Shown here in pieces: positions 40,057-64,000 of a stretch of DNA of 64,000 nucleotides (within the stretch, counting starts at the first letter, position 1; each line of letters opens with the position of its first letter). The notes beneath the pieces were generated by a model, which made no database searches, was not told the DNA's origin, and worked only from the letters and a program-made list of their open reading frames with translations. A program made the position numbers and the translations under genes. The stretch is from Candidatus Aminicenantes bacterium (GTDB taxonomy: Bacteria; Acidobacteriota; Aminicenantia; Aminicenantales; UBA4085), in the NCBI GenBank assembly GCA_963729855.1, contig CAVSPT010000005.1, forward strand, positions 439,661 through 503,660, in the 5' to 3' direction.

Positions 40057-40060
40057 GATC

Positions 40061-42058: not shown

Positions 42059-42061
42059 GGA

Positions 42062-42364
42062 TCAGCCTTTCAAGTCGTTGAGCTCGTCGATGTCGTAGCT
42101 GCGTTTATTGCGGAAATAGGCCAGGACCAGGGCGAAGCCGACGGCGGCCTCGGCCACGGCCATGATGACGACGAAGAGGGCGAAGATCTGTCCCTTGGGC
42201 GAATGAAGGTGCCGGCCCAGGCCGGCCAGGATGACGTTGACCCCGTTGAGCAGGAGCTCGAGCGACATCAGCATGATGACCAGGTTCTTGCGGAAGAGGA
42301 CGCCGAACAGGCCGAGGAAGAAGAGGATCAGGCCCAGACCGATGACGGCGTTAATCGGGATCAT
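42062..42364 (-). CDS. nuoK: NADH-quinone oxidoreductase subunit K
   Basis: 100-aa, 3-TM ND4L-like protein 'LMSLELLLNGVNV'. Confidence 0.9.
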   Translation of the reverse strand: MIPINAVIGLGLILFFLGLFGVLFRKNLVIMLMSLELLLNGVNVILAGLGRHLHSPKGQIFALFVVIMAVAEAAVGFALVLAYFRNKRSYDIDELNDLKG

Positions 42365-42857
42365 GGAGGAGCTTCCTTCGGGCGATGATGACGGCCCCGA
42401 TGAGCACGGCCAGGAGGAGGATCGAGGCCAGCTCGAAGGGGACGAGGTACGTGGAGAAGAGCATCTCGGACAGCGCCTTCAAATCGGCCGCCTGTTCGTG
42501 GCCGGCGGCCGGGACGTACCGGTATTTCAGGAGGACGGCGGCGATCTCGCCCAGCAGGAGGGCGGGAACGGCGAAGATGAAGATCTTGGGGAAGAGCTTG
42601 CGCCGCTCCCTGACGACCTCGTCGAGATTGACGATGATGATGACGAAAATATAGAGGACGACGATGCCGCCGCCGTAGACCAGGATCTGGATGGCGCCGA
42701 GGTATTCGGCTTCCAGGGTGAAAAAGACCCCGGCCACGGACAAGACGGTGAAGGCCAGGTAAAGGACGCTGTGCATGGCGCTCTTCTGCAGGATGACCAG
42801 GAGGGCCGAGACCACGGCCAGGGCGGCGAAGAAAGCGAAAATGGCCAGACTGATCAT
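42351..42857 (-). CDS. nuoJ: NADH-quinone oxidoreductase subunit J
   Basis: ATG at 42857. ND6-like hydrophobic protein. Confidence 0.8.
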   Translation of the reverse strand: MISLAIFAFFAALAVVSALLVILQKSAMHSVLYLAFTVLSVAGVFFTLEAEYLGAIQILVYGGGIVVLYIFVIIIVNLDEVVRERRKLFPKIFIFAVPALLLGEIAAVLLKYRYVPAAGHEQAADLKALSEMLFSTYLVPFELASILLLAVLIGAVIIARRKLLHDPD

Positions 42858-43330
42858 GGGCGGCAGCCTCCGCACAGGTGCTGATGGAGATCCTCGCCTT
42901 GAACGTACATGGCGGGCAGGTCGAAATGGAGAGCGGCCTTGTCGACCGCCGTCATGCGGAACTCCCGGGAAAACCGGATGGCCGCGGTCGGACAGACTTC
43001 GACGCACAGGCCGCAGAAGGTGCAGCGCTCCAGGGTCCAGTCGAATTTCGTCGGGCGCATGGTCCTGGCTCCCTCGGCCTTCAGGCCTTCGATGTCGAAG
43101 CAGCCCGTCGGGCAGATCCGCTGGCAGGCCTTGCAGGCCACGCACAGCGGCCCGCCCTGTTCGTCGCGATAGAGGCGGAGCAGGCCGCGGAAACGGGCCC
43201 CCGGCTCCCGGACCTGCTCCGGGTACTGGACGGTGACCTTGCGGCTGAAATAATGGCGCAGGGTGACGGACAGGCCGAGGAGCATGTCGGTCAGGAAGAA
43301 TTTCCTGAGGAAACGGCCGATCGATCTCAT
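42854..43330 (-). CDS. nuoI: NADH-quinone oxidoreductase subunit I (2x[4Fe-4S])
   Basis: 'CVACKACQRICP' and 'CTFCGLCVEVCP'. ATG at 43330. Confidence 0.9.
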   Translation of the reverse strand: MRSIGRFLRKFFLTDMLLGLSVTLRHYFSRKVTVQYPEQVREPGARFRGLLRLYRDEQGGPLCVACKACQRICPTGCFDIEGLKAEGARTMRPTKFDWTLERCTFCGLCVEVCPTAAIRFSREFRMTAVDKAALHFDLPAMYVQGEDLHQHLCGGCRP

Positions 43331-44355
43331 AGCACGGACCCCACCAGGGCGACCACGAGGAGGTTGACGAGCGACAGGGGAATGAGCCATTTCCAGACCA
43401 GCTGGATGAGCGAATCGAAGCGGTAGCGCGGGAACGTGCCCCGGATCCAGACGTAGCAATAGAGAAAGAACATGATCTTGATCAGGTACCAGACGAAGCC
43501 GGGGAGAAGATGGAGAACCCGCAGGGCCCGGACGTTGGGAAACGGCGGGAGCCAGCCGCCGAAGAAGAGGACGACCACGAGCGAGGAGACCAGGACCATG
43601 TGGGCATATTCGGCCACGTAGAAGTAGGCGAATTTAAAGCCCGAATATTCGGTGTGGTAGCCGGCCACCAGCTCGGATTCGGCCTCCGGCAGGTCGAAGG
43701 GGGCGCGGTTGGTCTCGGCGATGGCCGAGATCCAGAAGACGACGAAGGAAACGGGCAGGAGGAAGCCGTACCAGACGTGCGACGATTCCTGGCGGCGGAC
43801 GATCTCGACCAGGTCCATGGAGCGGGAAACGAAGGCGACGGAAAGGACGGTCAGTCCGACCGGGATCTCGTAGCTCAGGATCTGGATGACCGAGCGCAGG
43901 GCGCCCATCAGGGGATATTTGGAGTTGGAGGCCCAGCCGCCGAAGATGACGCCGAAAACCGAGATGGAGGACAGACCCAGGATGAGGAGCAGGCCGACCG
44001 GGCTCTCGGCCACCCAGAGCTTGAGCTCGTAAGTCCCGATGCGGATCGGTTCGCCGAGGGGCAGGAAGCAGAAGGACAGAAGGGTCGAAAACATCACCAG
44101 GACGGGAGCGATGTTGAAGAGGAACGTGTCGGCCCGGCTCTGGATGATGTCTTCCTTGAAGAACAGCTTGACCGCGTCGGCGAAGGGCTGGAGGATGCCC
44201 TGCCAGCCGACCCGGTTGGGACCGATGCGGCCCTGGATCCAGGCCACGACCCGGCGCTCCAGCCAGATCATGACGATGACCATGACCATGGGGTAGACGA
44301 TGATGGCCAGGATCTTGACCACGGGGATGAGGAAATCGGCGACGAAGGGCGTCAT
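43327..44355 (-). CDS. nuoH: NADH-quinone oxidoreductase subunit H
   Basis: ND1-like 'GPNRVGWQGILQPFADAVKLF'. ATGA overlap with the nuoD stop. Confidence 0.9.
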   Translation of the reverse strand: MTPFVADFLIPVVKILAIIVYPMVMVIVMIWLERRVVAWIQGRIGPNRVGWQGILQPFADAVKLFFKEDIIQSRADTFLFNIAPVLVMFSTLLSFCFLPLGEPIRIGTYELKLWVAESPVGLLLILGLSSISVFGVIFGGWASNSKYPLMGALRSVIQILSYEIPVGLTVLSVAFVSRSMDLVEIVRRQESSHVWYGFLLPVSFVVFWISAIAETNRAPFDLPEAESELVAGYHTEYSGFKFAYFYVAEYAHMVLVSSLVVVLFFGGWLPPFPNVRALRVLHLLPGFVWYLIKIMFFLYCYVWIRGTFPRYRFDSLIQLVWKWLIPLSLVNLLVVALVGSVL

Positions 44356-45446
44356 TTGTCGATTTCCCCCAGGACGATGTCCAGCGAGCCGAGGATGGCC
44401 ACAACGTCGGCGAAGAGGCTGCCCTTGCACATCAGCTCCAGCGACTGGAGATTGATGAACGAGGGCGATTTCATCTTGACCCGTTCGGGCTTGTCCGTGC
44501 CGTTGGAGCGGATGAAGAAACCCAGCTCGCCCTTGGGCGCCTCGATGGAGTGGAAGATCTCGCCGGGGGCGATCTTGAAGACGCGCGGCACCTTGGCCCG
44601 GAACTCCCCGTCCGGCAGGCGGTCCAGGGCCTGGCGGACGATGGACAGGCTCTGCCCGATCTCGGCCAGGCGGACGCGATAACGGTCATAGAGGTCGCCG
44701 TTCTTGCCCAAGGGCACGCTGAATTCGAAATCCCCGTACGAGCTGTAGGGGTGGCGTTTGCGGACATCCCAATCGACGCCGGACGCGCGCAGGGCCGGCC
44801 CGGTCAGCCCGTAGGCCACGGCGTCGGCCGCCGAGATGGTCCCTATCCCGACCGTGCGCTGGAGCCAGATGCGGTTCTCGTTGAGGAGGCGCTCGATGTC
44901 CTTCAGCACGGCCGGCAGGCCGGCCATGATTTTGCGGATGCGGGCGACAGGACCGGGGGTCAGGTCGTAGGGCACGCCGCCCAGCCGCAGGGCGTGGACG
45001 GTCAGGCGGCCTCCGGCGTAGTCCTCGAAGAAATCGAGGATGTTCTCCCGGGCCTCGAACCCGTAAAGCAGGACGGTCATGGCCCCGATGTCATTGGCCA
45101 TGAAACCGACCCAGGCCAGGTGCGATGCCAGGCGCTGGAGCTCGGTCAGGATGACCCGGATGTATTGGCCGCGCTTGGGCACCTCGACGCCGGCCAGCTT
45201 CTCCGCGGCCAGGGCGAAGGCCAGATTGTTGGAGACCGAAGCGAGGTAGTCAAGGCGGTCGGTAAGCGGGACGATCTGATGATAGGTCTGGCTTTCCCAG
45301 AGCTTTTCCATGCCCCGGTGCAGGTAGCCGACGATGGGCTCGATGCCCCGGACGACCTCGTTGTCGACCCGCAGCTTGAGGCGGAGCACTCCGTGGGTGG
45401 AGGGGTGCTGCGGCCCCATGTTGAGCTCGATCTCTTTAAAGGCCAC
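44352..45446 (-). CDS. nuoD: NADH-quinone oxidoreductase subunit D (49-kDa subunit)
   Basis: 'ELNMGPQHPSTHGVLRL'. GTG start at 45446 (alternative ATG at 45419). Confidence 0.9.
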   Translation of the reverse strand: MAFKEIELNMGPQHPSTHGVLRLKLRVDNEVVRGIEPIVGYLHRGMEKLWESQTYHQIVPLTDRLDYLASVSNNLAFALAAEKLAGVEVPKRGQYIRVILTELQRLASHLAWVGFMANDIGAMTVLLYGFEARENILDFFEDYAGGRLTVHALRLGGVPYDLTPGPVARIRKIMAGLPAVLKDIERLLNENRIWLQRTVGIGTISAADAVAYGLTGPALRASGVDWDVRKRHPYSSYGDFEFSVPLGKNGDLYDRYRVRLAEIGQSLSIVRQALDRLPDGEFRAKVPRVFKIAPGEIFHSIEAPKGELGFFIRSNGTDKPERVKMKSPSFINLQSLELMCKGSLFADVVAILGSLDIVLGEIDK

Positions 45447-45945
45447 GCTTCGTCCCGTGGAGCGGAAAATCTTTGCGAAGGGGATATCCCTCGAAATCGT
45501 CGGGCAGATAAATCCGCTTCAGGTCGGGATGGCCGGCGAAGCGGATCCCGAACATGTCGTAGGCCTCGCGCTCGGCCCAATCCGCCGACTTATAGATCGG
45601 CTGGGCGGAGTCGATCTCCTCGCCTTCGGCCGCGTCGACGGACAGGCGGACGCGCAGTCCGGCCGGGAACCCGTAGAGCTGGTAGAGAACCTCGAAGCGC
45701 GGTCCCGCCGGACCGGGCTCGGCGGAACCCTTTTTCAGCCGGTCCAGGGCGATGATGTCCAGGAGGGCGTTGAAACCCTGCTCCTCTTTAAGAAAGGCCA
45801 ATGCTGCGCGCAGGCCGGACAGGCGCAGCTTGACGATCAATCCGTCCGCGGCCAAGGACGTCTCCAAAACGGCGGCGCCCAGCCGCCCGCGCAGGGCGTC
45901 GGCGACGTCCTGGAGACGGCGATCGTTATCCTGCGCGGCGGGCAT
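45436..45945 (-). CDS. nuoC: NADH-quinone oxidoreductase subunit C (30-kDa subunit)
   Basis: '[42 protein letters not shown]'. Confidence 0.9.
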
Positions 45946-46429
45946 GGGGTTTGAGGATTTCCCGGGTCGGATGCATATGGGCGATCTGGTCCTGTAAAGT
46001 CATCAAGCCGTGAAGAAGGCCCTGCGGCGTGGGGGGGCAGCCGGCGACGAAGACGTCCACCGGGATGACCTTGTCCACGCCCTGCAGAACGGAGTACGTC
46101 GGAAAGGGACCGCCTCCTATGGCGCAGTTGCCCATGGCCACGACCCACTTCGGGTCGGGCATCTGTTCCCAAAGGCGGCGGACGACCGGGGCCATCTTGT
46201 TGGTCACCGTGCCGGCGACGATGAACAGGTCGGCCTGGCGCGGAGAGGCCCGGAAGAGCTCCATGCCGAAGCGGCTGATATCGTAGCGGGCCGCGGCCGT
46301 GGCGATCATCTCGATGGCGCAGCAGGCCAGGCCGGAGCCGAAGGGCCAAAGCGAATTCTTCATGGCCCAGGTGATGAACCGGTCGGCCTTGGCCAGCAGA
46401 AAGGGTTCTTTGAGGCCCGGGTCAGTCAT
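45926..46429 (-). CDS. nuoB: NADH-quinone oxidoreductase subunit B (PSST/N2 cluster)
   Basis: 'GLACCAIEM', '[10 protein letters not shown]', 'GCPP'. ATG at 46429 after GGAGG. Confidence 0.9.
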
Positions 46430-46793
46430 CGTTCCTCCGGAATTCGAGCGCGCCCGCCTTCCATGCGTAGACGTACCCGAGAAGCAGGATGGCGATGAAG
46501 ATGGCCGCTTCAACCACGCCGAACAGCTTCAGCCTGTCGTGGACGATGGCCCAGGGGAAGAGAAAGAACGTTTCGACCTCGAAGACGATGAAGGCCAGCG
46601 TAAGCAGGTAAAAGCGAATGGAATAGGATTCGCGGGCTGTCGGCGTGGCCGGGTCCACGCCGCACTCATAGGGAACATGCTTGTCGCCGACGTTGCTCCT
46701 CCGGTAGCGGATGAGAGAGATGCCCAGCAGAAGGCCGACGGAAAAAATCACCGAAATGACAAAAAAAAGAAAAAAATACCAATCGTTCTGCAT
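46422..46793 (-). CDS. nuoA: NADH-quinone oxidoreductase subunit A
   Basis: ND3-like 'YECGVDP', '[12 protein letters not shown]'. ATG at 46793. Confidence 0.9.
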
Positions 46794-47878: not shown

Positions 47879-48212
47879 GGCGCGTCTCCTTCATGATATC
47901 GTTCAGGGAAGCCGTGATCGTCTCCCACTCCGCGGACAATTGCCTGAAGATCCGCTGTCCTTCGGCGGACAGGCGATAGAAGCGCTTGGGCCTCTTGTCC
48001 TCGTCCCGCCATTCGCTGACCAGCAGCCCCTGGCTTTCCAGCCGCCGCAGGAGCGGATACAGCGTCCCTTCATCGACGACCATTCCCATTTCGGCCAGGG
48101 CCTTGCGCAGGGTGTAGCCGTACTGTTCACTCCGAAGCTCGGCCAGGACCGCCAGCGGGACGCACCCGCGGCGAAGCTCGAGGCGTAGGTTTTCGAACTG
48201 ATCGTTGGTCAT
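47865..48212 (-). CDS. PadR-family transcriptional regulator
   Basis: Winged HTH 'CVPLAVLAELRSEQYGYTLRKALAEMGMVVDEGTLYPLLRRLESQGLL'. Confidence 0.85.
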   Translation of the reverse strand: MTNDQFENLRLELRRGCVPLAVLAELRSEQYGYTLRKALAEMGMVVDEGTLYPLLRRLESQGLLVSEWRDEDKRPKRFYRLSAEGQRIFRQLSAEWETITASLNDIMKETRHGSR

Positions 48213-48230
48213 GGCGGCGGCCTTTCCTTT

Positions 48231-48276
48231 TATACAGTGTCACGTATAGTGTATGTTACACAGTATAGACTGTCAA
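48231..48276. repeat. Cluster of short direct/inverted repeats (TATACAGTGT ... GTATAGTGTAT ... ACACAGTATAGACTGTC) immediately upstream of padR
   Basis: Read directly. AT-rich. Candidate PadR operator and boundary of the low-GC island. Confidence 0.35.
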
Positions 48277-48368
48277 GTCTTTTTTTCGATCCCCATCATC
48301 TCGAATAGCCGGGCGCGCGTTCGCTCCTGCGCTGCGAGAAATACGCCGAGCGGCAGCAAAAAAACCAT

Positions 48369-48396
48369 TTGACAATATCGCGCACTGTGTTATATT
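48369..48396 (+). promoter_or_regulatory. Strong sigma70-like promoter (TTGACA-16-TATATT) for gdhA
   Basis: Read directly. Followed by a roughly 190-nt leader before ATG 48590. Confidence 0.5.
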
Positions 48397-48523
48397 TTCG
48401 AGAAAATTGTGAATGGCTTTGTTAAGTTATACAGATGAAGCGAGAAGATTTCTCTCCGGGGAGAAATGACCGAGGGGCCGGAACCTAAAAAGTGGCGGGG
48501 ATGAAAGAAAGCAGGGCCCCTGA

Positions 48524-49942
<1,419 letters not shown>

Positions 49943-49970
49943 TTCATCAAGCGCGATCCCGTCGCAAAAA

Positions 49971-50002
49971 GGGTGCCCGTCGCGAGACGGGCACCCTTTT
50001 TC
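49971..50002 (+). terminator. Rho-independent terminator after gdhA
   Basis: gggtgcccgtc-gcga-gacgggcaccc perfect 11-bp stem followed by tttttc. An upstream A-run makes it potentially bidirectional. Confidence 0.75.
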
Positions 50003-50106
50003 ATTTCAGAATCGGTCTTCGCTTCATCATTGAGAAAGCACGCCGCTTCATACTCCGACGGCCGGCTCGGTCGGATGGCCGGCAGGCCCTGACCCGGTTC
50101 AGGCCC

Positions 50107-50136
50107 TTGACCACGGGCCGGAGCGGGAGCTAATAT
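50107..50136 (+). promoter_or_regulatory. Sigma70-like promoter candidate (TTGACC-18-TAATAT) for comDE-like genes
   Basis: Read directly. Confidence 0.3.
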
Positions 50137-50222
50137 TCTATTCTAAGATGACAGCGATGCCGAGGTTAAGGGCCGGTTCCTCATAGAGGGCAGAAAACCA
50201 AATTCATAGAGGCCGTTGGGTG

Positions 50223-50762
50223 ATGATTAGCGCCAGATCGGTTTTGGACGAACTGAAGGCTTGCCATGTGACGTTCTGTGTCGGTTTGGCGGAAACGGCA
50301 TTGGCCGCTCTGGCCGCCCTTCTCGAGAACGATCAGTCGGTGCGGTTCGTTCCCGTGACCCGGGAAGGGGAAGCATTTGCTCTGGCTTCCGGATTGTGGA
50401 TCGGCGGACAGAACGCGGTCATCTTGGTGCAAAATACAGGATTGCTGGAGAGCGGAGATGCGCTCCGCGGAACGGCTCAACGCATGCGGGTCCCGGTCCT
50501 TTGCCTGATCGCGTATCGCGGCCACTCGCATTTGCTCGGGCAAAAAAAGCATAACGGGTCTGAGCCGCGGAATCCCGACGAGTTCAGCCGTCCCGACTTG
50601 GATTCGGCGGCTCTCGTCACGGAGCCCACATTGAATGCCTGGGGCATTCCCTTTGAATTCCTGGACTCCGATGCCGATCTCCCGAAAATATCACGAGCTT
50701 TCGACCGCGCCCAAAGGGAATCTCGGCCGGTCGCCCTCCTGGTCACGAACACGATGGTTTAA
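50223..50762 (+). CDS. Sulfopyruvate/phosphonopyruvate decarboxylase alpha-subunit-like (TPP enzyme N-terminal pyrimidine-binding half)
   Basis: About 180 aa: 'HVTFCVGLAETALAALAALLENDQSVRFVPVTREGEAFALASGLWIGGQNAVILVQNTG' fits a TPP enzyme N-terminal domain. Partnered immediately with the beta half. Confidence 0.65.
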   Translation: MISARSVLDELKACHVTFCVGLAETALAALAALLENDQSVRFVPVTREGEAFALASGLWIGGQNAVILVQNTGLLESGDALRGTAQRMRVPVLCLIAYRGHSHLLGQKKHNGSEPRNPDEFSRPDLDSAALVTEPTLNAWGIPFEFLDSDADLPKISRAFDRAQRESRPVALLVTNTMV

Positions 50763-50780
50763 TGATTCCTGGCGGAGACG

Positions 50781-51371
50781 ATGCTAACCAAGGAACAGCT
50801 GCTTAAGCCCCTGGCCCAGCTCCGAAGCACGGCCGTTGTCGTGACCTGCATGAGCGTAACGCGCCCCTGGGGACGCTATTCGTCGAGCGAGCTGGATTTT
50901 GCCTCGGCTGACAGCGCCATGGGTCATACGGCCGATCTGGCTCTGGGGATCGCTCTGGCCCAGCCGCAGCGCAAGGTCATCTGCTTAAATGGCGATGGAA
51001 GCATGTTGATGACCTTGGGAACGCTGGCCACGGTCGTCGCCGCGCGAGCCACGAACTTCGCCCTCTTCATCGTCCAGAATGATTCTTACGAGCTGACCGG
51101 ACATCAGCCGATTCCGGCGGCGGGGCGCATTGATTTTGCCCGGCTGGCGCGAGGCGCGGGTTTCGAACACGTCTATGATTTTGAAAATGCGGATGATTAT
51201 GAAAGGCGATTGCCGGCCGTTCTTGCGGAGGAAGGACCGGTGTTTGCGGCGGTTCGAGTCGAAAAAGGCGCGGAAGGCCCCATCAGCCGAAGCGCAAAGG
51301 AACCGTCTCGGTACCTTCAAGTCTCGCTCGCTGAATCAGCCCATCGTCTCAGGAAGATGTTGATATCGTAG
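50781..51371 (+). CDS. Sulfopyruvate/phosphonopyruvate decarboxylase beta-subunit-like (TPP-binding C-terminal half)
   Basis: 'ICLNGDGSMLM' GDG-x24-N thiamine-diphosphate motif. GGAG ribosome-binding site. Gene starts 19 nt after the alpha stop. Confidence 0.65.
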   Translation: MLTKEQLLKPLAQLRSTAVVVTCMSVTRPWGRYSSSELDFASADSAMGHTADLALGIALAQPQRKVICLNGDGSMLMTLGTLATVVAARATNFALFIVQNDSYELTGHQPIPAAGRIDFARLARGAGFEHVYDFENADDYERRLPAVLAEEGPVFAAVRVEKGAEGPISRSAKEPSRYLQVSLAESAHRLRKMLIS

Positions 51372-51509
51372 CCAAGCCGGCGGACCGCCCCCGCTCATCG
51401 CGCCGCCCGCCGTATGAGGTTCAAATCCTGCGGCCGAAATTATCGAAAACGATCGAAAGCCGAAAAGACCAGATCAATCATCGGGCCCAGGTCAAATCCC
51501 GGCTCCAAG

Positions 51510-51539
51510 TTGACGGATTTTTGGATTTTCCCATATAAT
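51510..51539 (+). promoter_or_regulatory. Sigma70-like promoter (TTGACG-18-TATAAT) upstream of the Cys-rich response regulator
   Basis: Read directly. Perfect -10 hexamer. Confidence 0.5.
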
Positions 51540-51660
51540 GGACAGCCGGAATGAAGATCTACTGAATACGGTGGGGCATTCCGGGGGGATTTCTTATGTT
51601 GCGCGGAGAGAGCATATTCGATAAACAAAGGAAAGCAGGGAGATCGACGTCCATTCCATA

Positions 51661-52371
51661 ATGCCGTCGGAGCCAATCATCATGGAGAAAAAGATAGGAT
51701 CCTTTATCCAGGTCTATTGTCCGGAAATCATGGACATGATCAACCCGGGAGAATGGACGGATTGCCCTTATTATCGAGGCCAGAAGCTCGACATGTCGAA
51801 TACCGAGGAGGCGTTGAAGCAGATCTTCCGCTGCCATGTCCAATGCGACTGCAAGATTCAATATCAGTATTACGAGGAGGGGAAGCTGGTGAAGAAGGTT
51901 CTCGATTCCGTGGAGGACCAGGAAAGCCTCCGCCGGATCCTTCTTCTGGTGAGCAAACCGACCGAGAAGCCGAATAAAAAAACGAAAATCCTGATCGTTG
52001 ACGACGACGCGGATTTCCTCGAAATGCACTCCGTTGTCCTGAAAAACAAGGGATACGAAGTCATCACGGCCCCGAGTGCAAAAAAATGCGAGCAGGCCCT
52101 GGAGAAAGGCCGGCCCGACCTCGTGATCCTGGACGTCATGATGGAGCAGTTCGACGCCGGATTTGAACTGAGCAAGAAGATCAAGAAGAAGTATGACGGC
52201 CTGCCGGTGATGCTCCTCACGTCCATCGGGCAACAAACAGGGCTGGACTTCTCCTCCAACGCCGAGGTCTTAAGAACGACCGGCGCCGACGCTCTTCTCG
52301 ACAAGCCGGTCAGTCCCGAGGTGTTCATCGCCGAAATTGAGAGGTTGACCGCGCCCATGAAGAAGCGGTAA
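51661..52371 (+). CDS. Response regulator with N-terminal Cys-rich domain and C-terminal receiver (REC) domain
   Basis: C-terminal 'KILIVDDDADFLEMH...DLVILDVMM...KPV' REC with phospho-acceptor Asp. N-terminal about 90 aa with C20, C35, C58, H59, C62, C64 ('YCPE','DCPYY','RCHVQCDC'). Alternative ATG at 51682 has the better ribosome-binding site. Confidence 0.7.
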   Translation: MPSEPIIMEKKIGSFIQVYCPEIMDMINPGEWTDCPYYRGQKLDMSNTEEALKQIFRCHVQCDCKIQYQYYEEGKLVKKVLDSVEDQESLRRILLLVSKPTEKPNKKTKILIVDDDADFLEMHSVVLKNKGYEVITAPSAKKCEQALEKGRPDLVILDVMMEQFDAGFELSKKIKKKYDGLPVMLLTSIGQQTGLDFSSNAEVLRTTGADALLDKPVSPEVFIAEIERLTAPMKKR

Positions 52372-52387: not shown

Positions 52388-54475
52388 ATGGACATCCTCA
52401 GCATCTCCAACGCCAAGTGCCGCAAGTGCTACCGGTGCGTACGGGAGTGCCCGACCAATGCCCTGAAAATCGACCAGGGGGTGGTCAAGAGAATCTGGAG
52501 CCGCTGCATTCTCTGCGGGCTCTGCTACCGGCACTGCCCCCACGCGGCCGTGAACGCCCATACCGGAATCAAGCGCGTCCTCGATCTGCTCGAGTCGGGG
52601 CAGAAAGTCGTCGCCTGCCTGGACCCCACTTTTCCGGCGGTCTTGGACAGGGGCACGCCGGGCCAGCTTGTGACCGCGTTGAAAAAACTCGGTTTTCACG
52701 AAGTCTGGGAGGCCGCGGTCGGGGGCGACTTGGTGGCCGAACCCTACCGTTCCTGGCTCGCCCAAAATAGGGAATCTAGCTGGATTTCTTCATTCTGCCC
52801 GTCGCTCGTCTTTTACATTCAAAAATTCGCCCCCTCTCTGAGCAGCCAGCTCGTGCCGATCGTTTCTCCGATGATTGCCTGCGGCCGAGCGGTTAAACAG
52901 CTCTTGGGTGCCGACACGAAAGTGGTTTTTATCGGTCCGTGCATCTCTCGAATCTGGGAGCGCATGGACCGGAGCGGAAGGGAAGCCATCGATTATGTAT
53001 TGGTCTATCGGGACATCACCAACACTCTCAGGGCGAGAGGAATCGACCGCGAAGAACAAGAACCGTCAGAATTTGACGGGCCCCGGAGCAGCCTGGGAAG
53101 GGTCCTGAGCTTTTCGGGGGGGATGAGCAAGTGCGCCGGGTTCGAGCAGGACCTCCTGAATCTGGACTATGTGGTTGAGGCCGGAGCCCCAGAAGCCATG
53201 CGGGCCTTGAAGCAGCTCCAGGAAGGAAAGATCCGCGCGCGGTTTCTCGACTTGCTGTTGTGCCGTGGCTGCATCAACGGTCCCGTAACGGACATGCAAA
53301 TCTCGGGTCCCAGTCGAAAGCAGATTGTCGTGGATTTCATTAAAGCCCAGGATCTGGTCGAGCCGGCGAAAAAAAAGGAAGGCCTCGGGGAGCCCTCTCA
53401 TTTGAATCTCACACGGAGCTTTCGACCCCATGATGCGTCCCTGCCGGATCCCACGGACGCGGAGGTCGAGGCCGTTCTGGCTCAACTCGGGAAATCCTAC
53501 CCCGACCAAAACCTGGACTGCGGGGCCTGCGGCTACAGCTCCTGCCGGGAGAAGGCCAAGGCCATCGTCCTGGGATTGGCTGAGATGGAAATGTGCCACC
53601 ATTTTCTTTTGGAACGCCTCCAGAGCCTCTATTCGCAGCTGGAAAAGTCTCACCGCCAGCTCAAGAGCTCCCATGAGCAATTGGAGGGGGCCCAACGGCA
53701 GTTGATCCAGACGGAGAAAATGGCCTCCCTCGGACAGTTGGCGGCGGGCGTGGCCCATGAGCTGAACAACCCCATCGGCACGATCATGATGTTCAGCCGG
53801 ATGATCCAGAAGGAAATGGCCCAGGATCAAAAATGGCAGAAGGATATCACCATCGTCGTCCAGGAAGCGGACCGGGCGGCTAAGATCATCAAGGACCTGC
53901 TGAGCTTCGCCAGGGAAACGAAGGTCAAGCCAGGGCAGGTGAGCATCAATCCGGTCATCCAAGAAACCCTATCGCTTCTTGTCAAGCAATCTCTCTTTCA
54001 CAATATCGAAGTGGTTGTCCTCTTGGACCCGACGCTGCCGACGACGTTTGCCGATCCGGACCTCCTGAAGCAGGTATTTTTCAACATCATCCTGAACGGC
54101 GCCCAGGCTATGGAAGGGAAAGGGACGTTGACCATCCAAACTCAGAACATCGATAACGGCAGGACCATCGAAATCCGGATCCAAGACACCGGCAAGGGAA
54201 TCCCCGAGAAACACATCCCCAAGCTCTTCGACCCGTTCTTCACGACCAAGGAGAAGGGAACGGGGCTGGGCCTGGCCCTTGTTTACAGCATCGTTTCCAA
54301 ACACAAGGGATCGATCGCCGTAGAAAGCGAGCTGGAGAAAGGCGCCACGTTCCTCATCCGGCTGCCCATCCTGAGCCAGGAAGACTGGCTGAAGCGTGAA
54401 GGCCAGGTCGAAGACTTAGGGACCGGGCTCGAAGGAAAATACAATGAAAGCCCAAGCAAAGATCTTATTGGTTGA
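52388..54475 (+). CDS. Histidine kinase with N-terminal [FeFe]-hydrogenase-like (HydS-type sensory) domain: 2x[4Fe-4S] ferredoxin + H-domain-like + Cx2Cx4Cx16C + HisKA + HATPase_c
   Basis: 'CRKCYRCVRECP', 'CILCGLCYRHCP'. H-cluster motif analogues 'SSFCPS' (TSCCP), 'GPCISRIWE' (MPCxxKxxE), 'LLLCRGCINGP' (MACxGGCxxG). 'CGACGYSSC-x16-C'. H-box 'AHELNNPIG'. HATPase 'DTGKGIPEKH...GTGLGLALV'. Confidence 0.8.
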   Translation: MDILSISNAKCRKCYRCVRECPTNALKIDQGVVKRIWSRCILCGLCYRHCPHAAVNAHTGIKRVLDLLESGQKVVACLDPTFPAVLDRGTPGQLVTALKKLGFHEVWEAAVGGDLVAEPYRSWLAQNRESSWISSFCPSLVFYIQKFAPSLSSQLVPIVSPMIACGRAVKQLLGADTKVVFIGPCISRIWERMDRSGREAIDYVLVYRDITNTLRARGIDREEQEPSEFDGPRSSLGRVLSFSGGMSKCAGFEQDLLNLDYVVEAGAPEAMRALKQLQEGKIRARFLDLLLCRGCINGPVTDMQISGPSRKQIVVDFIKAQDLVEPAKKKEGLGEPSHLNLTRSFRPHDASLPDPTDAEVEAVLAQLGKSYPDQNLDCGACGYSSCREKAKAIVLGLAEMEMCHHFLLERLQSLYSQLEKSHRQLKSSHEQLEGAQRQLIQTEKMASLGQLAAGVAHELNNPIGTIMMFSRMIQKEMAQDQKWQKDITIVVQEADRAAKIIKDLLSFARETKVKPGQVSINPVIQETLSLLVKQSLFHNIEVVVLLDPTLPTTFADPDLLKQVFFNIILNGAQAMEGKGTLTIQTQNIDNGRTIEIRIQDTGKGIPEKHIPKLFDPFFTTKEKGTGLGLALVYSIVSKHKGSIAVESELEKGATFLIRLPILSQEDWLKREGQVEDLGTGLEGKYNESPSKDLIG

Positions 54476-54845
54476 TGACGACCCCGATTTTCTGGAGATG
54501 CACAAGGCCGTTCTCCAGAGCCGGGGCTATGAGGTTTTCACCGCCGCGAGCGCCCAGGAAGGCCTGGGACGCGTCCGGGCGGAGATGCCGGACCTGATCA
54601 TCCTGGACCTCATGATGGAGAAGCATGACGCGGGATTTTCCTTCAGCAAGGCGGTCAAGACCGACCCGCTGTTCAGGACGATCCCCATCCTCATGGTGAC
54701 GTCGGTGGCCGAGGCCACCGGCTATCGCTTTTCGCTCGAGGAAGACGGGTATTGGATGAAAACGGACGATTTCCTGAATAAGCCCGTTCCGCCTGAAGTC
54801 CTCCTGGAAGCCGTCGATAAACTCCTGCAGAAGAAAAAAGAATGA
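54444..54845 (+). CDS. Stand-alone receiver-domain response regulator (CheY-like)
   Basis: 'ILLVDDDPDFLEMH...DLIILDLMM...KPV'. Overlaps the kinase stop. Confidence 0.8.
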   Translation: MKAQAKILLVDDDPDFLEMHKAVLQSRGYEVFTAASAQEGLGRVRAEMPDLIILDLMMEKHDAGFSFSKAVKTDPLFRTIPILMVTSVAEATGYRFSLEEDGYWMKTDDFLNKPVPPEVLLEAVDKLLQKKKE

Positions 54846-54846
54846 A

Positions 54847-56325
54847 ATGAATACACAAGGCCGAATTCTCGTCGTCGACGATGAAATGGGAATCCGCGAA
54901 GGCTGCCGGCGCGTCCTGGCGGAGGAAGGGTACGACATCGACCTGGCCGGAGACGGAAATGCCGGCCTGCAGAGGGCCCGGGAGAAATCCTATGACCTCG
55001 TCCTGGTCGACCTCATGATGCCGGGCATCGGCGGGCTGGACATGATCAATAAGATCCACGAGATCGATCCCGAGATCATCATGGTCGTGATCACGGGATT
55101 TGCCACCATCGAAACGGCGGTCGAGGCGACGAAGAGGGGGGCCTACGATTACCTTCCGAAACCCTTCACTCCGGAAACGCTGGCCGTCCTGGTCAAGAGG
55201 GGGCTCGAGAAGCGGGAGCTCCGATTGGAGGCCCAGAGGCTTCAGCAGGAACGGGAGCAGAGGCTCCTGGAGCTGGCCGGTGAAAAGAGCCGCCTCCGGA
55301 GCATCATCGGCTGCATGGCCGACGGCGTTCTGGTCACGAACCTCGAGGGTCACCTGGTCCTCTGGAACGCCTCCGCCGTGAACATGCTGAAACTCCGGGG
55401 AACGGACGAACCCGGGAAACCTCCGGGCCATTACATCAAGAATCAGCCTTTGATCGAATCCCTGGCAAAAATCATGAACTCGAAGGACGAAAGTGTCTCG
55501 ATGATCAGCCAGGAGATCCCCTCGGATGACGCGAAATCGGTCCTGATGGCCCAGATGGCCCCCGTCCGGGACGACCAGGGGAAGCTTCTCGGAGCCGTGA
55601 CGGTCCTGAGGGACATCACGAAGCTCAAGGAGATCGATAAGATCAAATCCCAGTTCGTCTCCATGGTGGCGCATGAGCTTCGCTCGCCCTTGGCGGCCAT
55701 CGAAGGCTGGCTGGGCCTCCTGCTGTCCGGCGAAGTCGAAGGGGACAAAGAACAAAAACGACAATGGCTGCGGCGGGCGAAAGAGCGGGCCCACTCTCTC
55801 CTGGCTCTCGTCCAGGACTTGCTGGAGATCAACAAGATCGAGGCCGGGAAGGTCGCCCTGAAGATGGAGTCCCTCCAGATGACCGACATCCTGGGCAAGA
55901 TCATCGACTTTCTCAAGCCCGAAGCGGACAAGAAAAATGTCTCCATCCAAATGAGATCTCCCGCGCCGATTCCGCTCCTCCGGGCCGACGTTCAGGACAT
56001 GGAAAAGCTCTTCACCAACCTGATCAGCAATGCCATCAAATACAACGTCGAGAAGGGTTCGATCACGATCGAAACGTCTTTGGATGCGAACTACGTCGGG
56101 ATTCACGTCCACGATACCGGGATCGGCATATCCCGGGACGACCTTCCGCGGATTTTCGACGATTTCTTCCGGGCCGAAAACAGCAAAACGGCTAAGATCA
56201 GCGGAACAGGACTGGGGTTGACGATCGCCAAGAAAATCGTGGACTCCCACTTCGGGCATATCGAAGTGAAGAGCGAGCCGGATAAGGGAAGCACCTTCTC
56301 CGTCTACCTGCCTTACCGGACATGA
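54847..56325 (+). CDS. Hybrid sensor: N-terminal receiver + PAS + HisKA + HATPase_c histidine kinase
   Basis: 'ILVVDDEMGIREG...DLVLVDLMMPG', PAS-like 'IGCMADGVLVTNLEGHLVLWN', 'VAHELRSPLAAI', 'GTGLGLTIAKKIV'. Confidence 0.8.
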   Translation: MNTQGRILVVDDEMGIREGCRRVLAEEGYDIDLAGDGNAGLQRAREKSYDLVLVDLMMPGIGGLDMINKIHEIDPEIIMVVITGFATIETAVEATKRGAYDYLPKPFTPETLAVLVKRGLEKRELRLEAQRLQQEREQRLLELAGEKSRLRSIIGCMADGVLVTNLEGHLVLWNASAVNMLKLRGTDEPGKPPGHYIKNQPLIESLAKIMNSKDESVSMISQEIPSDDAKSVLMAQMAPVRDDQGKLLGAVTVLRDITKLKEIDKIKSQFVSMVAHELRSPLAAIEGWLGLLLSGEVEGDKEQKRQWLRRAKERAHSLLALVQDLLEINKIEAGKVALKMESLQMTDILGKIIDFLKPEADKKNVSIQMRSPAPIPLLRADVQDMEKLFTNLISNAIKYNVEKGSITIETSLDANYVGIHVHDTGIGISRDDLPRIFDDFFRAENSKTAKISGTGLGLTIAKKIVDSHFGHIEVKSEPDKGSTFSVYLPYRT

Positions 56326-56347: not shown

Positions 56348-58612
56348 ATGAGTCTAAGCCGAACGCATCAACCCAACGAAATCCTCAGGAAGGAGCAGCT
56401 GGCTCCGGCGATCACGCTGTTCGAAGTCTATGCTCCGCTCGTCGCCCGAACCGTCCGGGCCGGCCAGTTTGTCGTCGTTCGGGCCGACGACTATGCGGAA
56501 CGGATTCCGCTCACGGTCGCCGACCGCAGCCTCGAAAACCAATCCATCACCCTGATCGTCCAAGTCGTCGGCCTCTCGACCAGGAAGATGGACACGCTCA
56601 AAGCCGGGGATGCGTTCCTCGACGTCGTCGGGCCCCTGGGGCAGCCGACGGAGATCAAGAAGGCCGGGACCGTGGTCTGTATCGGGGGAGGCGTCGGCGT
56701 CGCGCCCGTCTATCCCATCACCAAAGCTTTCAGAGCGGCGGGAAGCCGCATTCTGGCCATCATCGGCGCTAAGAACAAAGAGATGATCATCCTGGAAAAC
56801 GAGATGCGGGCCGTGAGCGACGAGCTTTACATCACGACGGACGACGGCACGGCCGGCCGCCGGGGGTTCGTCTCGGACGAACTCCAAAGGCTGATCACGG
56901 ACAAAGTGCCGATCGACCTGGTCATCGCCATCGGGCCCGGGATCATGATGAAAGTCATATCCGACATCACCAGGAAACACGGGATCCCGACGATCATCAG
57001 CCTGAACTCGCTGATGGTGGACGGGACCGGCATGTGCGGCAGCTGCCGGATCACCGTGGGGAACGAGACGAAGTTTGTCTGTGTCGACGGGCCCGAGTTC
57101 GACGCCCACCAGGTGGATTTCCAGGAGCTCCTCAAGAGGTCGGAAATGTACAAGCGAGAGGAGCACCGGGCCATGTGGGATCATGCCTGCCGGCTCCTGG
57201 CCGCCGAGAAGGCGCTCGGCAAGGCCAAACGTCGGGAGCCCATGCCCAAACAGGACCCCAAGCTCCGGGTTCAAAATTTCAACGAGGTCGCCCTGGGCTA
57301 CACCAAGGAGCAGGCCATTCGTGAAGCCTCGCGGTGCTTGAGTTGTAAAAAGTCGCCCTGCGTGGCCGGATGCCCGGTCGACATCGATATCCCGGGCTTC
57401 ATCGAACTCGTCCGGAAGGGCGACCTCATCGCGGCCAGTCATAAGATCAAAGAGAAGAACAGCCTCCCCGCCATCTGCGGACGGGTCTGCCCCCAGGAAG
57501 AGCAATGCGAGGTCGCCTGCGTCCTGTCCAAAAAAGGGCAGCCCATCGCCATCGGTCGGCTGGAACGGTACGTGGCCGATTATGAATTCCAGCAGGGGGA
57601 CGTCCGGATGCCGAAAAATCTGAGCCCGACGGGGAAAAAGGTCGCCGTCATCGGGGCCGGGCCGGCCGGTTTGTCGGCGGCCAGCGAACTTGCCAAAATG
57701 GGGCACAGCGTCATCGTCTTCGAGGCCCTCCACAAGCCGGGCGGCGTTCTCGTTTACGGGATTCCCGAGTTCCGTCTTCCCAAGTGGATCGTCCAGCGCG
57801 AATGCGAATACATCGGCAGGCTGGGGGCCGAAATCCGGGTGAGCCAGGTCGCCGGAAAATCCTTCACCATCGACGACCTTTTGAGCAACGGCTATGATGC
57901 CGTCTTCATCGGGACCGGGGCGGGCCTGCCGTACTTCATGAAAATCCCCGGGGAGAACCTGAACGGGGTGTACTCGGCCAACGAGTTCCTGTCCCGGGTG
58001 AACCTCATGAAGGCCTATCTTTTCCCGGAATTCCAGACCCCCGTCCATTATGGGCAGAAGATCGCCGTCGTGGGAGGCGGGAACGTGGCCATGGATTCCG
58101 CCCGGACCTCGCTCCGCTTGGGAGCCGAAAAAGTCTACCTGATCTACCGCCGGGCGAGAGAACAAATGCCGGCCCGCGAGGAGGAGATCGAGAACGCTTT
58201 CGAGGAAGGCGTCGAACCGCGCCTGCTGACCAATCCCATTCGGATCCTGGGAAACGAAAAAGGCTGGGTGAAGGGGATCGAATGCATCCAGATGGAGCTC
58301 GGAGAAGCGGATGGATCAGGCCGGAGACGGCCAATTCCCAAAAAGGGCTCTGAGCACATTATTGATGTCGACATGGTGATCATGGCCATCGGCCAGGGCC
58401 CCAATCCCCTCTTGACGTCGACGACCGCCGGCTTGGCGCTGACAAAGACGGGGAACATCATTGCCGACGAAACGACGGGCAAGACCTCGAAGAAAGGAGT
58501 GTTCGCCGGCGGCGACATCGTCACCGGCGCGGCCACGGTCATCCTGGCCATGGGGGCGGGCAAAAAGGCGGCCCAATCGATCGACGTCTATTTAAGGACT
58601 GGAGAGTGGTGA
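56348..58612 (+). CDS. Fused NfnA-NfnB-like flavoprotein: PyrK/SudB-like FAD + [2Fe-2S] domain fused to GltD/SudA-like 2x[4Fe-4S] FAD/NAD(P)H oxidoreductase
   Basis: N-terminal half 'GGGVGVAPV', 'CGSCRI...C.DGPEF'. C-terminal half 'CLSCKKSPCVAGCP', 'CGRVCPQEEQCEVAC', 'VAVIGAGPAGLSAA', 'GVFAGGDIVTG'. Confidence 0.8.
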   Translation: MSLSRTHQPNEILRKEQLAPAITLFEVYAPLVARTVRAGQFVVVRADDYAERIPLTVADRSLENQSITLIVQVVGLSTRKMDTLKAGDAFLDVVGPLGQPTEIKKAGTVVCIGGGVGVAPVYPITKAFRAAGSRILAIIGAKNKEMIILENEMRAVSDELYITTDDGTAGRRGFVSDELQRLITDKVPIDLVIAIGPGIMMKVISDITRKHGIPTIISLNSLMVDGTGMCGSCRITVGNETKFVCVDGPEFDAHQVDFQELLKRSEMYKREEHRAMWDHACRLLAAEKALGKAKRREPMPKQDPKLRVQNFNEVALGYTKEQAIREASRCLSCKKSPCVAGCPVDIDIPGFIELVRKGDLIAASHKIKEKNSLPAICGRVCPQEEQCEVACVLSKKGQPIAIGRLERYVADYEFQQGDVRMPKNLSPTGKKVAVIGAGPAGLSAASELAKMGHSVIVFEALHKPGGVLVYGIPEFRLPKWIVQRECEYIGRLGAEIRVSQVAGKSFTIDDLLSNGYDAVFIGTGAGLPYFMKIPGENLNGVYSANEFLSRVNLMKAYLFPEFQTPVHYGQKIAVVGGGNVAMDSARTSLRLGAEKVYLIYRRAREQMPAREEEIENAFEEGVEPRLLTNPIRILGNEKGWVKGIECIQMELGEADGSGRRRPIPKKGSEHIIDVDMVIMAIGQGPNPLLTSTTAGLALTKTGNIIADETTGKTSKKGVFAGGDIVTGAATVILAMGAGKKAAQSIDVYLRTGEW

Positions 58613-63589: not shown

Positions 63590-64000
<411 letters not shown>

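Follow-up and report, generated by a model that had tools for sequence, protein, structure and literature searches.

Caulobacter FixT is reportedly a single-domain receiver that binds Fe-S and exerts feedback inhibition on the FixL kinase, and its four Cys are said to lie inside the receiver domain itself. The thioredoxin-like [2Fe-2S] ferredoxins (PF01257) are small modules of hydrogenases and complex I, represented by NuoE, HoxE and HndA, and are often associated with hydrogenases. In PhyR, which belongs to the alphaproteobacterial general stress response, phosphorylation of the C-terminal receiver frees the N-terminal domain for partner binding (PMC5964349, PMC4551977). Group C1 of the [FeFe] hydrogenases in HydDB is labelled 'histidine kinase-linked (putative)', with a role that is given as undetermined, possibly H2 sensing (PMC5037454).

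Here we describe Cys-REC, a response regulator encoded in a 64,000-nt stretch of Candidatus Aminicenantes DNA, the whole of which we call the window. Cys-REC, like PhyR and CheV, carries its effector part first and its receiver last, and we propose a protein-protein output for it too; however, its N-terminal domain is neither sigma-like nor CheW-like (no Pfam match), being instead rich in Cys and His and probably metal-binding. Domain order alone is common to both, and partner switching is what we infer for Cys-REC. Like FixT, Cys-REC is a small member of the receiver family that has no DNA-binding domain; it also shares a four-Cys metal centre, which is putative here, and, as we propose, an action at the protein level on a two-component system that senses redox state or gas. 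In contrast to FixT, its Cys are placed in a separate N-terminal domain that also exists free, and no sequence relationship between the two was found. As in HydDB group C1 systems, the operon includes an [FeFe]-hydrogenase-like sensor kinase, assigned here by its Pfam domains. Our best reading makes the Cys4-His domain a new family of output domains within a known kind of protein.

An earlier note on this DNA described a response regulator of inverted architecture in the open reading frame 51661..52371 (+ strand, 236 aa), and this frame is real, with the receiver at its C-terminal end. It also held that the Cys-rich segment is translated, both candidate ATGs lying ahead of it. Translation of the segment is borne out by its dN/dS of 0.11–0.17, equal to or below that of the receiver, and the N-terminal domain is under purifying selection; the start itself, however, moves to 51682 (M8 of that frame), which is most likely the true one judging by the orthologues. 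All of these begin at the Met equivalent to M8, with in-frame stops just upstream and a kept GGAG 9–10 nt ahead of the ATG, from which we take the protein to be most likely 229 aa long. GGAG or GGGAG is found at equal distance in nearly all orthologous loci, and locus L010 has GAGG. Residue numbers below count from this Met unless stated otherwise.

Table 1 Features of the Cys-REC gene and its cassette, in window coordinates.
Feature	Position	Strand	Description or basis
Sigma-70-type promoter-like element	51510..51539	+	TTGACG-N18-TATAAT; 11/12 consensus positions (scan)
Shine-Dalgarno GGAG	51669..51672	+	9 nt before ATG 51682; read in sequence; orthologous loci
Cys-REC response regulator CDS, most likely extent	51682..52371	+	229 aa + stop; ORF, orthologue starts, Shine-Dalgarno
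N-terminal Cys4-His domain, aa 1–92	51682..51957	+	Alignments, AF2 secondary structure, pI, dN/dS
Invariant Cys13 codon	51718..51720	+	Motif VYC-P-E; alignments, 102-sequence count
Invariant Cys28 codon	51763..51765	+	Motif C-P-Y/F; alignments, 102-sequence count
Invariant Cys51-His52-x-x-Cys55 codons	51832..51846	+	Sequence, 102-sequence count
Variable Cys57 codon	51850-51852	+	Cys in 66/102
Variable Lys/Pro/Glu-rich linker, aa 93–101	51958..51984	+	Non-conserved in alignments
Receiver domain (REC)	51985..52368	+	DDD acidic pocket, phospho-acceptor Asp of 'LDVMME', Thr of 'LLTS', Lys of 'LDKP'
Histidine kinase, [FeFe]-hydrogenase-like sensor	52388..54475	+	2x Fer4, Fe_hyd_lg_C, PF04060 FeS, HisKA, HATPase (Pfam)
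REC-only protein RR2	54444..54845	+	Paralogue of fused REC; 32-nt overlap with kinase gene
REC-PAS-HisKA-HATPase kinase	54847..56325	+	Orthologue beside Cys domain in every clade examined
Fused NfnA+NfnB-like oxidoreductase	56348..58612	+	754 aa; NAD_binding_1, DHODB_Fe-S_bind, Fer4_20, Pyr_redox_2

The C-terminal half of the protein is, by its sequence, a canonical and phosphorylatable receiver. The Pfam model Response_reg (PF00072) covers aa 110–226 of the 236-aa frame and scores 68.2 bits there (cut-off 30.2), and the domain conforms to the (beta-alpha)5 CheY fold. The DDD pocket, the D of 'DVMME', the T of 'LLTS' and the K of 'LDKP' are invariant across 17 aligned orthologues. Response_reg is also the sole Pfam match above threshold in the open reading frame; NCBIfam matches are confined to the receiver part, far below their cut-offs, and leave the N-terminal part without a match. 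A DNA-binding output domain of the OmpR/PhoB, NarL, NtrC or LytTR classes was found in Cys-REC by neither Pfam nor NCBIfam.

Cys-REC heads a compact cassette of five genes that is widely conserved and has a probable promoter of its own. In 27 genome and 80 metagenome loci, as judged wherever the contig reaches far enough, Cys-REC is followed in turn by the [FeFe]-hydrogenase-like kinase, a REC-only protein, a REC-PAS kinase and the fused NfnAB-like oxidoreductase; the broken genome loci L023 and L028 are the exceptions. Within the window's clade the hydrogenase-like kinase gene always comes next after Cys-REC; in the window it begins 16 nt past the Cys-REC stop, the two genes being paired in an operon, in agreement with the adjacency reported earlier. 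Wherever a locus is long enough, the NfnAB-like oxidoreductase is its last cassette gene. A search for DNA-binding Pfam domains found none in any cassette gene. We also considered a NiFe hydrogenase beside the cassette in the window and discarded it, as the Oxidored_q6 gene at 45926-46513 is a member of a complex I cluster.

The near-consensus TTGACG-18-TATAAT that the earlier note placed upstream is present (Table 1), and its sequence and conservation indicate that it is probably a real promoter. In an alignment of five orthologous loci, TTGACG and TATA[AC]T are the sole invariant upstream blocks, the rest having diverged, and a promoter-like pair (TTGACG/TATACT or TTGAAA/TAAAAT, with a spacer of 17–18) is the best upstream match in most of 25 genome loci. 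Beyond these two hexamers and the Shine-Dalgarno sequence, the five-locus alignment holds nothing kept that could serve as a candidate operator. From the promoter-like element, a 5' UTR of ~140 nt is predicted; we considered a regulatory RNA there and rejected it, with Rfam matches at chance level and conservation of the UTR in close relatives only.

The 92 N-terminal residues form an undescribed, acidic domain, predicted to be alpha/beta, and our search of the literature found no description of either this domain or the five-gene cassette. The motif C-x14-C-x22-C-H-x2-C-x-C had been noticed in the translation (C20, C35, C58, H59, C62 and C64 in the numbering of the 236-aa frame), and all of it except the last Cys proves to be invariant. 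The core C13-x14-C28-x22-C51-H52-x2-C55 is found with fixed spacing in 102 distinct homologous sequences, which were collected with a pattern that demanded four Cys and the x14 spacing and gave latitude only to x22 (15–25) and to the His (H or Q); His52 is present in 102/102. Conservation of the Cys is also visible in alignments made independently of the search pattern. Position 57, the last Cys of 'CDC', is variable, with 66 Cys, 27 Thr and 9 Ser among the 102. Position 16 is a Cys, giving CPEC, in 40 of the 102 family members, and the window protein reads CPEI. A fifth Cys is found at position 16 or 57 in 92/102, as if these were alternative sites. The domain is acidic in each of the 31 members tested, with a pI of 4.5–6.8 and a net charge of -0.3 to -9.4; an acidic charge is in general no strict bar to nucleic-acid binding.

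That the N-terminal segment contains no domain one can name, as had been stated from the letters alone, holds across Pfam, NCBIfam and the PDB, none of which gives a significant match; phmmer and hmmsearch against PDB sequences returned nothing significant for this part. The accompanying suggestion of a Zn-ribbon or a small Fe-S or redox domain remains reasonable as a guess; the zinc-ribbon Pfam models stay below threshold and the ferredoxin profile test was negative, as set out below. In structure prediction, which the earlier note had recommended, AF2 models of the full-length protein (from a 6-sequence alignment) and of the N-terminal domain (from a 31-sequence alignment) gave secondary-structure elements, with low confidence, as beta 8–13, helix 41–55, beta hairpin 58–76 and helix 80–91, but no confident fold, the pLDDT of the domain being ~58, and ~50–60 across both models. 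An origin of the domain from the Nfn enzyme was likewise considered; the N-terminus of the L029 enzyme reads VYCPEIARAVRPGQF and that of the window's enzyme VYAPLVARTVRAGQF, blastp found nothing, and we attribute the likeness to chance.

With an invariant His inside the predicted helix 41–55, in a cassette that has two kinases and three receivers and no Hpt domain, His52 might be a phosphotransfer site in an unconventional, Hpt-like relay among the cassette receivers and kinases. We hold this to be very improbable: an Hpt profile gave no match, similarity to Spo0B-type domains is equally lacking, the predicted fold is alpha/beta and not a four-helix bundle, and His52 is flanked by invariant Cys, which is a setting typical of metal sites.

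The Cys pattern also bears on a likeness to zinc ribbons (L32, PF13240, PF08271), in that the stretch 'VYCPE[C/L]..MI.PGE...CPY' is reminiscent of a beta hairpin carrying two zinc knuckles. However, the first knuckle is without its second Cys in the window protein and most members and the second knuckle in all members; the window protein reads CPEI and CPYY, with one Cys per putative knuckle in place of the two CxxC knuckles of a zinc ribbon. Moreover, it is a helix lying 22 residues further on that supplies the other two invariant Cys of the domain. The zinc-ribbon Pfam models all score below their gathering thresholds, with a best E of 0.015 and sub-threshold matches in 10–13 of 31 members (Zn_Ribbon_1 in 10/31, at this best E; TFIIB-type in 5), and among PDB sequences the zinc ribbon of L32 is matched at E 0.8. 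These matches, together with the conserved promoter directly upstream and a cassette otherwise without a DNA-binding protein, would suit a novel zinc-ribbon-type DNA-binding domain; Cys-REC would then act as the cassette's transcription factor, regulating its own promoter and perhaps hydrogenase or redox genes. We consider this quite unlikely, as the acidity of the domain in 31/31 members argues against DNA binding, the kept upstream sequence offers no operator and a free 94-aa form would be unusual for a regulated DNA-binding output.

A thioredoxin-type fold also has points of contact with the domain. In the full-length model, which is of low confidence, the elements run beta-(CPxC)-short helix-beta-helix-(CxxxC)-beta-beta-helix, the order of a minimal thioredoxin fold, fitting thioredoxin and glutaredoxin; the second model differs at residues 14–37. 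Thioredoxin is among the best PDB sequence matches, at E 0.36 and thus far from significance, with C13 aligned to the active-site Cys and C51/C55 to Cys69/Cys73, and about half of the best 50 Foldseek matches are thioredoxins, all non-significant. Overall, neither sequence nor structure comparison revealed significant similarity to thioredoxin-fold proteins, and the Pfam models for thioredoxin, glutaredoxin and PF01257 did not match even at E up to 10.

The thioredoxin-like ferredoxins and the N-terminal domain alike are small and acidic, of ~100 aa. In both, one Cys closes the first strand, a second sits in the loop that follows and a C-x3-C precedes a beta hairpin and helix, the C-x14-C-x22-C-x3-C of the N-terminal domain comparing with C-x12-C-x32-C-x3-C in Aquifex Fd4 (1F37). 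However, Fd4 has 10 residues more in its middle spacing, the general ferredoxin pattern being C-x(4-12)-C-x(about 30-35)-C-x3-C, and the ferredoxins have no counterpart of the invariant His52. Using an Fd4 sequence confirmed against PDB 1F37 and a ferredoxin family alignment of 31 members built for hhalign, we obtained a probability of 0.6%, and local, greedy and forced global modes were all negative. On these grounds we reject demonstrable homology and retain the ferredoxin likeness only as an analogy of spacing and topology.

These likenesses bear on whether the Cys4-His domain could be a second input, that is, a redox sensor (resembling thioredoxin and glutaredoxin or the thioredoxin-like ferredoxins, with an Fe-S centre or a thiol-disulfide switch) that tunes phosphorylation or dephosphorylation of the receiver and makes Cys-REC a redox-gated phosphate sink or connector in a multi-kinase network. 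The element order, the Cys positions aligned with thioredoxin, the CPEC that part of the family has where thioredoxin has its CxxC, the thioredoxins among the non-significant Foldseek matches, the Cys spacing compared with Fd4, the alternative fifth Cys and a genomic context that is throughout one of the Fe-S and hydrogenase biochemistry of anaerobes are all consistent with such a sensor. Still, we think it rather unlikely, given the negative ferredoxin and Pfam comparisons, the non-significant matches, the low-confidence models and a window protein that lacks the second Cys of the CxxC. A further possibility, which we rate as distinctly improbable, is that a redox Fe-S module of the thioredoxin-like-ferredoxin type, or a thiol switch, couples the phosphorelay physically to the NfnAB-like oxidoreductase and hydrogenases, such that phosphorylation gates electron transfer or enzyme activity, or the redox state of the enzyme gates phosphotransfer. 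If true, a kinase cascade sensing H2 or redox state would control an electron-bifurcation-type enzyme post-translationally, without a transcription factor.

The N-terminal domain family is tiny, its members coming from Aminicenantes plus a small number of further uncultured lineages, and exists in two forms, either fused to a receiver or as a stand-alone protein of 94–95 aa encoded 9–13 nt upstream of a REC-only gene. By its sequence distribution, then, the domain behaves as an independent module. The clade with the stand-alone form takes in a Ca. Eisenbacteria MAG, and the fused receiver has its best match in the adjacent REC-only protein there (49–52% identity, compared with 36–37% to RR2), which indicates a gene fusion or fission event. 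The same clade has parts of the cassette, namely, in turn, REC-HK, the Cys protein, two REC proteins, an Nfn-like enzyme 65% identical to that of the window, and a kinase, the core of which is 47% identical to that of the hydrogenase-like kinase but which has a Cache-HAMP sensor. The same domain and receivers being wired to a Cache-HAMP kinase there shows a reusable signalling core with exchangeable sensors. More distant clades have REC-HK and Cys-REC side by side, and a cNMP-binding protein or a sigma-54 activator adjoins this pair; the final output could thus still be transcriptional, by way of another protein.

Taken together, we tentatively read the Cys4-His domain as a metal-binding effector or redox module that is controlled by the receiver and acts on proteins, not DNA, a reading drawn from sequence that we regard as plausible and slightly short of probable. 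From Cys/His conservation only, we infer that the four Cys, perhaps with the His, would hold a metal, either structural Zn or a redox-active Fe-S centre. Gene neighbourhood suggests that the cassette kinases phosphorylate the receiver, with the REC-kinase as the likely partner in every clade and the hydrogenase-like kinase as the presumed upstream H2 or redox sensor in the window's lineage. The Cys4-His domain would be the effector end, and phosphorylation of the receiver would switch its binding to a protein partner, for which either cassette kinase or the Nfn-like enzyme of the cassette is a candidate. Output would then be post-translational and independent of DNA binding, in the manner of the N-terminal protein-binding domain of PhyR or CheV.

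To our knowledge, the targets of putative sensory [FeFe]-hydrogenase kinases are largely unknown. Since hydrogenase-like and other kinases, along with a redox enzyme, always accompany Cys-REC, this protein may reveal where putative H2- or redox-sensing kinases send their signal, and its Cys4-His domain is the only signalling module of the cassette that is neither receiver nor kinase. Aminicenantes are an abundant uncultured lineage of sediments, and once its metal content, fold and partner are defined, the domain would provide a concrete, testable entry point to what such systems put out in these bacteria. The domain would enlarge the response-regulator repertoire by a new output or input family.

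The receiver is the only domain that Pfam recognises in Cys-REC, the window's response regulator, when the open reading frame is taken as it was originally drawn (51661..52371, + strand, 236 residues; Response_reg, residues 110–226, 68.2 bits against a cut-off of 30.2), and the rest of the frame contains no other significant Pfam domain. NCBIfam matches are limited to the receiver part and fall far below the family cut-offs, and the N-terminal ~100 residues have no match among PDB sequences, whether searched as a single sequence or as a family profile, in line with the earlier note, which could name no domain there. The start codon proposed in that note has to be moved: homologues in all database proteins and genome loci begin at the methionine equivalent to its M8 (MEKK...), most genome loci carry an in-frame stop a few codons 5′ of this position, and nearly all orthologous loci share a GGAG/GGGAG 9–10 nt ahead of the ATG, which places the predicted gene at 51682..52371, with a product of 229 residues whose numbering is used from here on. 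The promoter-like TTGACG-18-TATAAT element described in the same note was recovered by a promoter scan, and across orthologous loci the conservation upstream of this first cassette gene is confined to the two promoter hexamers and the Shine-Dalgarno sequence. The ~140-nt 5′ UTR that separates the start codon from the conserved promoter matches no Rfam family and is conserved in sequence only in the closest relative. GC content drops to 0.49 at 51400–52000 (promoter, UTR and N-domain coding sequence), compared with 0.63 for the whole window, and is also below average at ~48200–50200.

The Cys/His pattern first noted for the N-terminal segment reads exactly as quoted in the translation. Its last cysteine, C57 of 'CDC', is variable across the family. 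Among 102 distinct motif-region sequences drawn from genomes, metagenomes and protein matches, position 57 is occupied by Cys in 66, by Thr in 27 and by Ser in 9; 40 have a further Cys at position 16 (CPEC), and ten have Cys at neither position. His52 is found in 102/102, and the x22 spacing is constant despite a search pattern that left it free over 15–25; that pattern demanded four Cys and the x14 spacing, whose conservation is supported by the alignments and not by the search. Together, these data define a putative ligand set with the core C13-x14-C28-x22-C51-H52-x2-C55. We consider it very unlikely that His52, invariant as it is, serves in an unconventional phosphotransfer relay. The receiver is canonical, with its acidic pocket, phospho-acceptor Asp, Thr and Lys all invariant. 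Pairwise dN/dS against orthologues is 0.11–0.17 for residues 1–92 and 0.12–0.27 for the receiver, and the N-terminal segment is a genuine domain, under selection and autonomous. Very few proteins belong to its family: HMMER, run in full over 1.84 billion representatives, returned nine, of which one is a spurious repeat protein, and 38 came from a word-indexed search of 5.8 billion clusters. The source databases label the members 'response regulator', 'CheY-like chemotaxis protein' or 'hypothetical protein'.

AF2 predicted this domain with low confidence, both in the full-length model (block pLDDT 37–70, mostly 50–65) and in a domain-only model built from 31 sequences (mean pLDDT 58). Both runs have in common a strand (8–13), a helix (41–55) predicted to bear C51, H52 and C55, a beta hairpin (~58–76) and a second helix (80–91). 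Three leads to its nature, all weak, were examined: zinc ribbon, thioredoxin fold and thioredoxin-like [2Fe-2S] ferredoxin. Zinc-ribbon Pfam matches occur in 10–13 of the 31 members, all sub-threshold, the L32 zinc ribbon is reached in the PDB sequence search at E 0.8, and VYCPE[C/L]..MI.PGE...CPY resembles two knuckles, each without its second Cys. A zinc-ribbon transcription factor is an improbable reading. All 31 members tested are acidic (pI 4.5–6.8, net charge -0.3 to -9.4), a character common in small metalloproteins but unusual for DNA-binding domains, and Pfam finds no DNA-binding domain in any cassette gene of the window. The main rival, that the Cys4-His domain is itself a redox sensor modulating the receiver, is rather unlikely, though more probable than the transcription factor; FixT, reportedly an Fe-S-binding receiver, is conceptually close to it. 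The PDB sequence search has a thioredoxin among its best matches (E 0.36), about half of the top Foldseek matches are thioredoxins, all of these being non-significant, and the order of elements in the low-confidence full-length model corresponds to a minimal thioredoxin fold. Thioredoxin-like [2Fe-2S] ferredoxins have a ligand arrangement much like that of the four invariant Cys, but when the family profile of the domain was compared with a profile of those ferredoxins, for which Aquifex Fd4 had been verified against 1F37, the outcome was plainly negative (Prob 0.6%); homology is therefore unsupported, leaving an analogy of spacing and topology only.

The Cys4-His domain occurs in two architectures. 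It is fused to a C-terminal receiver in metagenome-assembled genomes labelled mostly Candidatus Aminicenantes, with one labelled Fischerbacteria and several bins under generic labels, and it is a free protein of 94–95 residues in a second clade that includes a Candidatus Eisenbacteria genome. The free-form gene ends 9–13 nt before a REC-only gene, and it is in the product of this REC-only gene that the fused receiver of the window finds its best match (49–52% identity, compared with 36–37% between the fused receiver and the other REC of its cassette). The two forms are a textbook fusion or fission pair, from which it follows that the Cys domain acts together with this receiver in particular. 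A protein (P0003) with the look of a stand-alone Cys domain represents no third architecture but an artefact of frameshifts in L001 (ERZ25039502 contig_237697), a close relative in which the cassette is present with nearly every gene frameshifted into fragments, probably by long-read assembly error.

Features of the window around Cys-REC
Feature	Coordinates	Strand	Remarks
Promoter-like TTGACG-18-TATAAT	51510-51539	+	promoter scan
5′ UTR	51540-51681	+	
GGAG	51669-51672	+	
Cys-REC	51682-52371	+	corrected start
Histidine kinase, [FeFe]-hydrogenase-like sensor	52388-54475	+	Pfam
REC-only	54444-54845	+	32-nt overlap with end of kinase gene
REC-PAS-HisKA-HATPase kinase	54847-56325	+	starts 1 nt after REC-only
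NfnA-like (NAD_binding_1, DHODB_Fe-S_bind) + NfnB-like (Fer4_20, Pyr_redox_2)	56348-58612	+	one 754-aa polypeptide
Glutamate dehydrogenase, then split TPP-dependent enzyme (TPP_enzyme_N 180 aa, TPP_enzyme_C 196 aa)	48590-51371	+	
Complex I-type cluster (NuoB-, NuoH-, NuoJ- and antiporter-like)	37031-46513	-	annotation provisional
Second glutamate/leucine dehydrogenase-family gene fragment	63590-63973	-	close to window end

Directly downstream of Cys-REC, after 16 nt, lies the hydrogenase-like kinase that the earlier note had placed there, a 695-residue protein in which Pfam finds two Fer4 motifs, Fe_hyd_lg_C, PF04060 'FeS', HisKA and HATPase_c. Its H-cluster-type motifs are SSFCP (for TSCCP), GPCISRIWE (for MPCxxKxxE) and CRGCINGP; the four cluster Cys are kept, and the proton-transfer Cys and the Lys are replaced. 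The five-gene order Cys-REC, hydrogenase-like kinase, REC-only, REC-PAS-kinase and fused Nfn-like oxidoreductase recurs in all 27 genome loci, two of which (L023 and L028) have a broken version in which the response regulator and kinase genes are truncated or merged, and, among 80 metagenome loci, on every contig of sufficient length. The packing of the genes (16 nt, 32-nt overlap, 1 nt and 22 nt), together with upstream conservation limited to the hexamers and Shine-Dalgarno sequence, makes a single operon most likely. The glutamate dehydrogenase/TPP block precedes the cassette in few related loci only; L010 has its TPP genes on the opposite strand, downstream of the cassette. In the high-GC complex I-type region, crude ORF picking took wrong-strand frames of 339–827 residues without Pfam matches.

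The clade with the stand-alone domain has the same parts in a different order: a REC-kinase (the orthologue of REC-PAS-kinase, without PAS), the Cys protein, a pair of REC-only proteins, an Nfn-like enzyme that shares 65% identity with the one in the window, and a kinase with a periplasmic Cache-HAMP sensor in place of the hydrogenase-like one, along with divergently transcribed [NiFe] hydrogenase genes (small subunit, large subunit, HycI). The two kinase cores are 47% identical, which indicates a sensor-domain swap on a conserved kinase. In more distant members REC-kinase and Cys-REC are still adjacent; a cNMP-binding protein or a sigma-54 activator adjoins them, and once a hydrogenase-like kinase. 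In L040 (10001–20708) and L041, of a distant clade, a cNMP-binding protein with a weak rubredoxin-like match precedes the pair, and an Mrp/complex-I-like cluster (NuoK, four antiporter-like subunits, NuoA/B/C/D-like) replaces the Nfn-like enzyme after it. The partners that stay with the Cys domain throughout are thus the REC-kinase and its own receiver, whereas sensor kinases can be exchanged. The Nfn-like fusion gene is always last in the signalling cassette, and in other lineages the enzyme is encoded beside a [NiFe] hydrogenase of two subunits, accompanied by HycI or HypAB.

Three receivers and two kinases in one cassette suggest a kinase cascade or branched phosphorelay. How the domains are organised and conserved, the fusion/fission pair, the fixed make-up of the cassette and its lack of DNA-binding domains are observed directly. 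As the most likely mechanism we tentatively favour a metal-binding effector: the Cys4(-His) site would bind metal, the cassette kinases, chiefly the REC-kinase, would phosphorylate the receiver, with H2 or redox input in Aminicenantes coming from the hydrogenase-like kinase, and the Cys4-His domain would bind a protein partner, either a kinase or the Nfn-like enzyme, under receiver control. PhyR-type partner switching offers a model for such control (PMC5964349, PMC4551977).

Cys-REC can be classed as a response regulator whose partner domain had not been described before. Response regulators of inverted architecture are already known, as are receiver proteins that bind metal. Kinases with hydrogenase-like sensors are listed in HydDB group C1, putative H2 sensors of undetermined role (PMC5037454), to which the kinase here may belong. 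The novelty lies in the family of Cys4-His domains and in the constant position that it occupies in a cassette lacking a transcription factor, neither of which was found in Pfam 2025, NCBIfam 2026, the PDB or the searched literature. The finding would carry far greater weight if the domain were a redox-active link from the phosphorelay to an Nfn-type enzyme.
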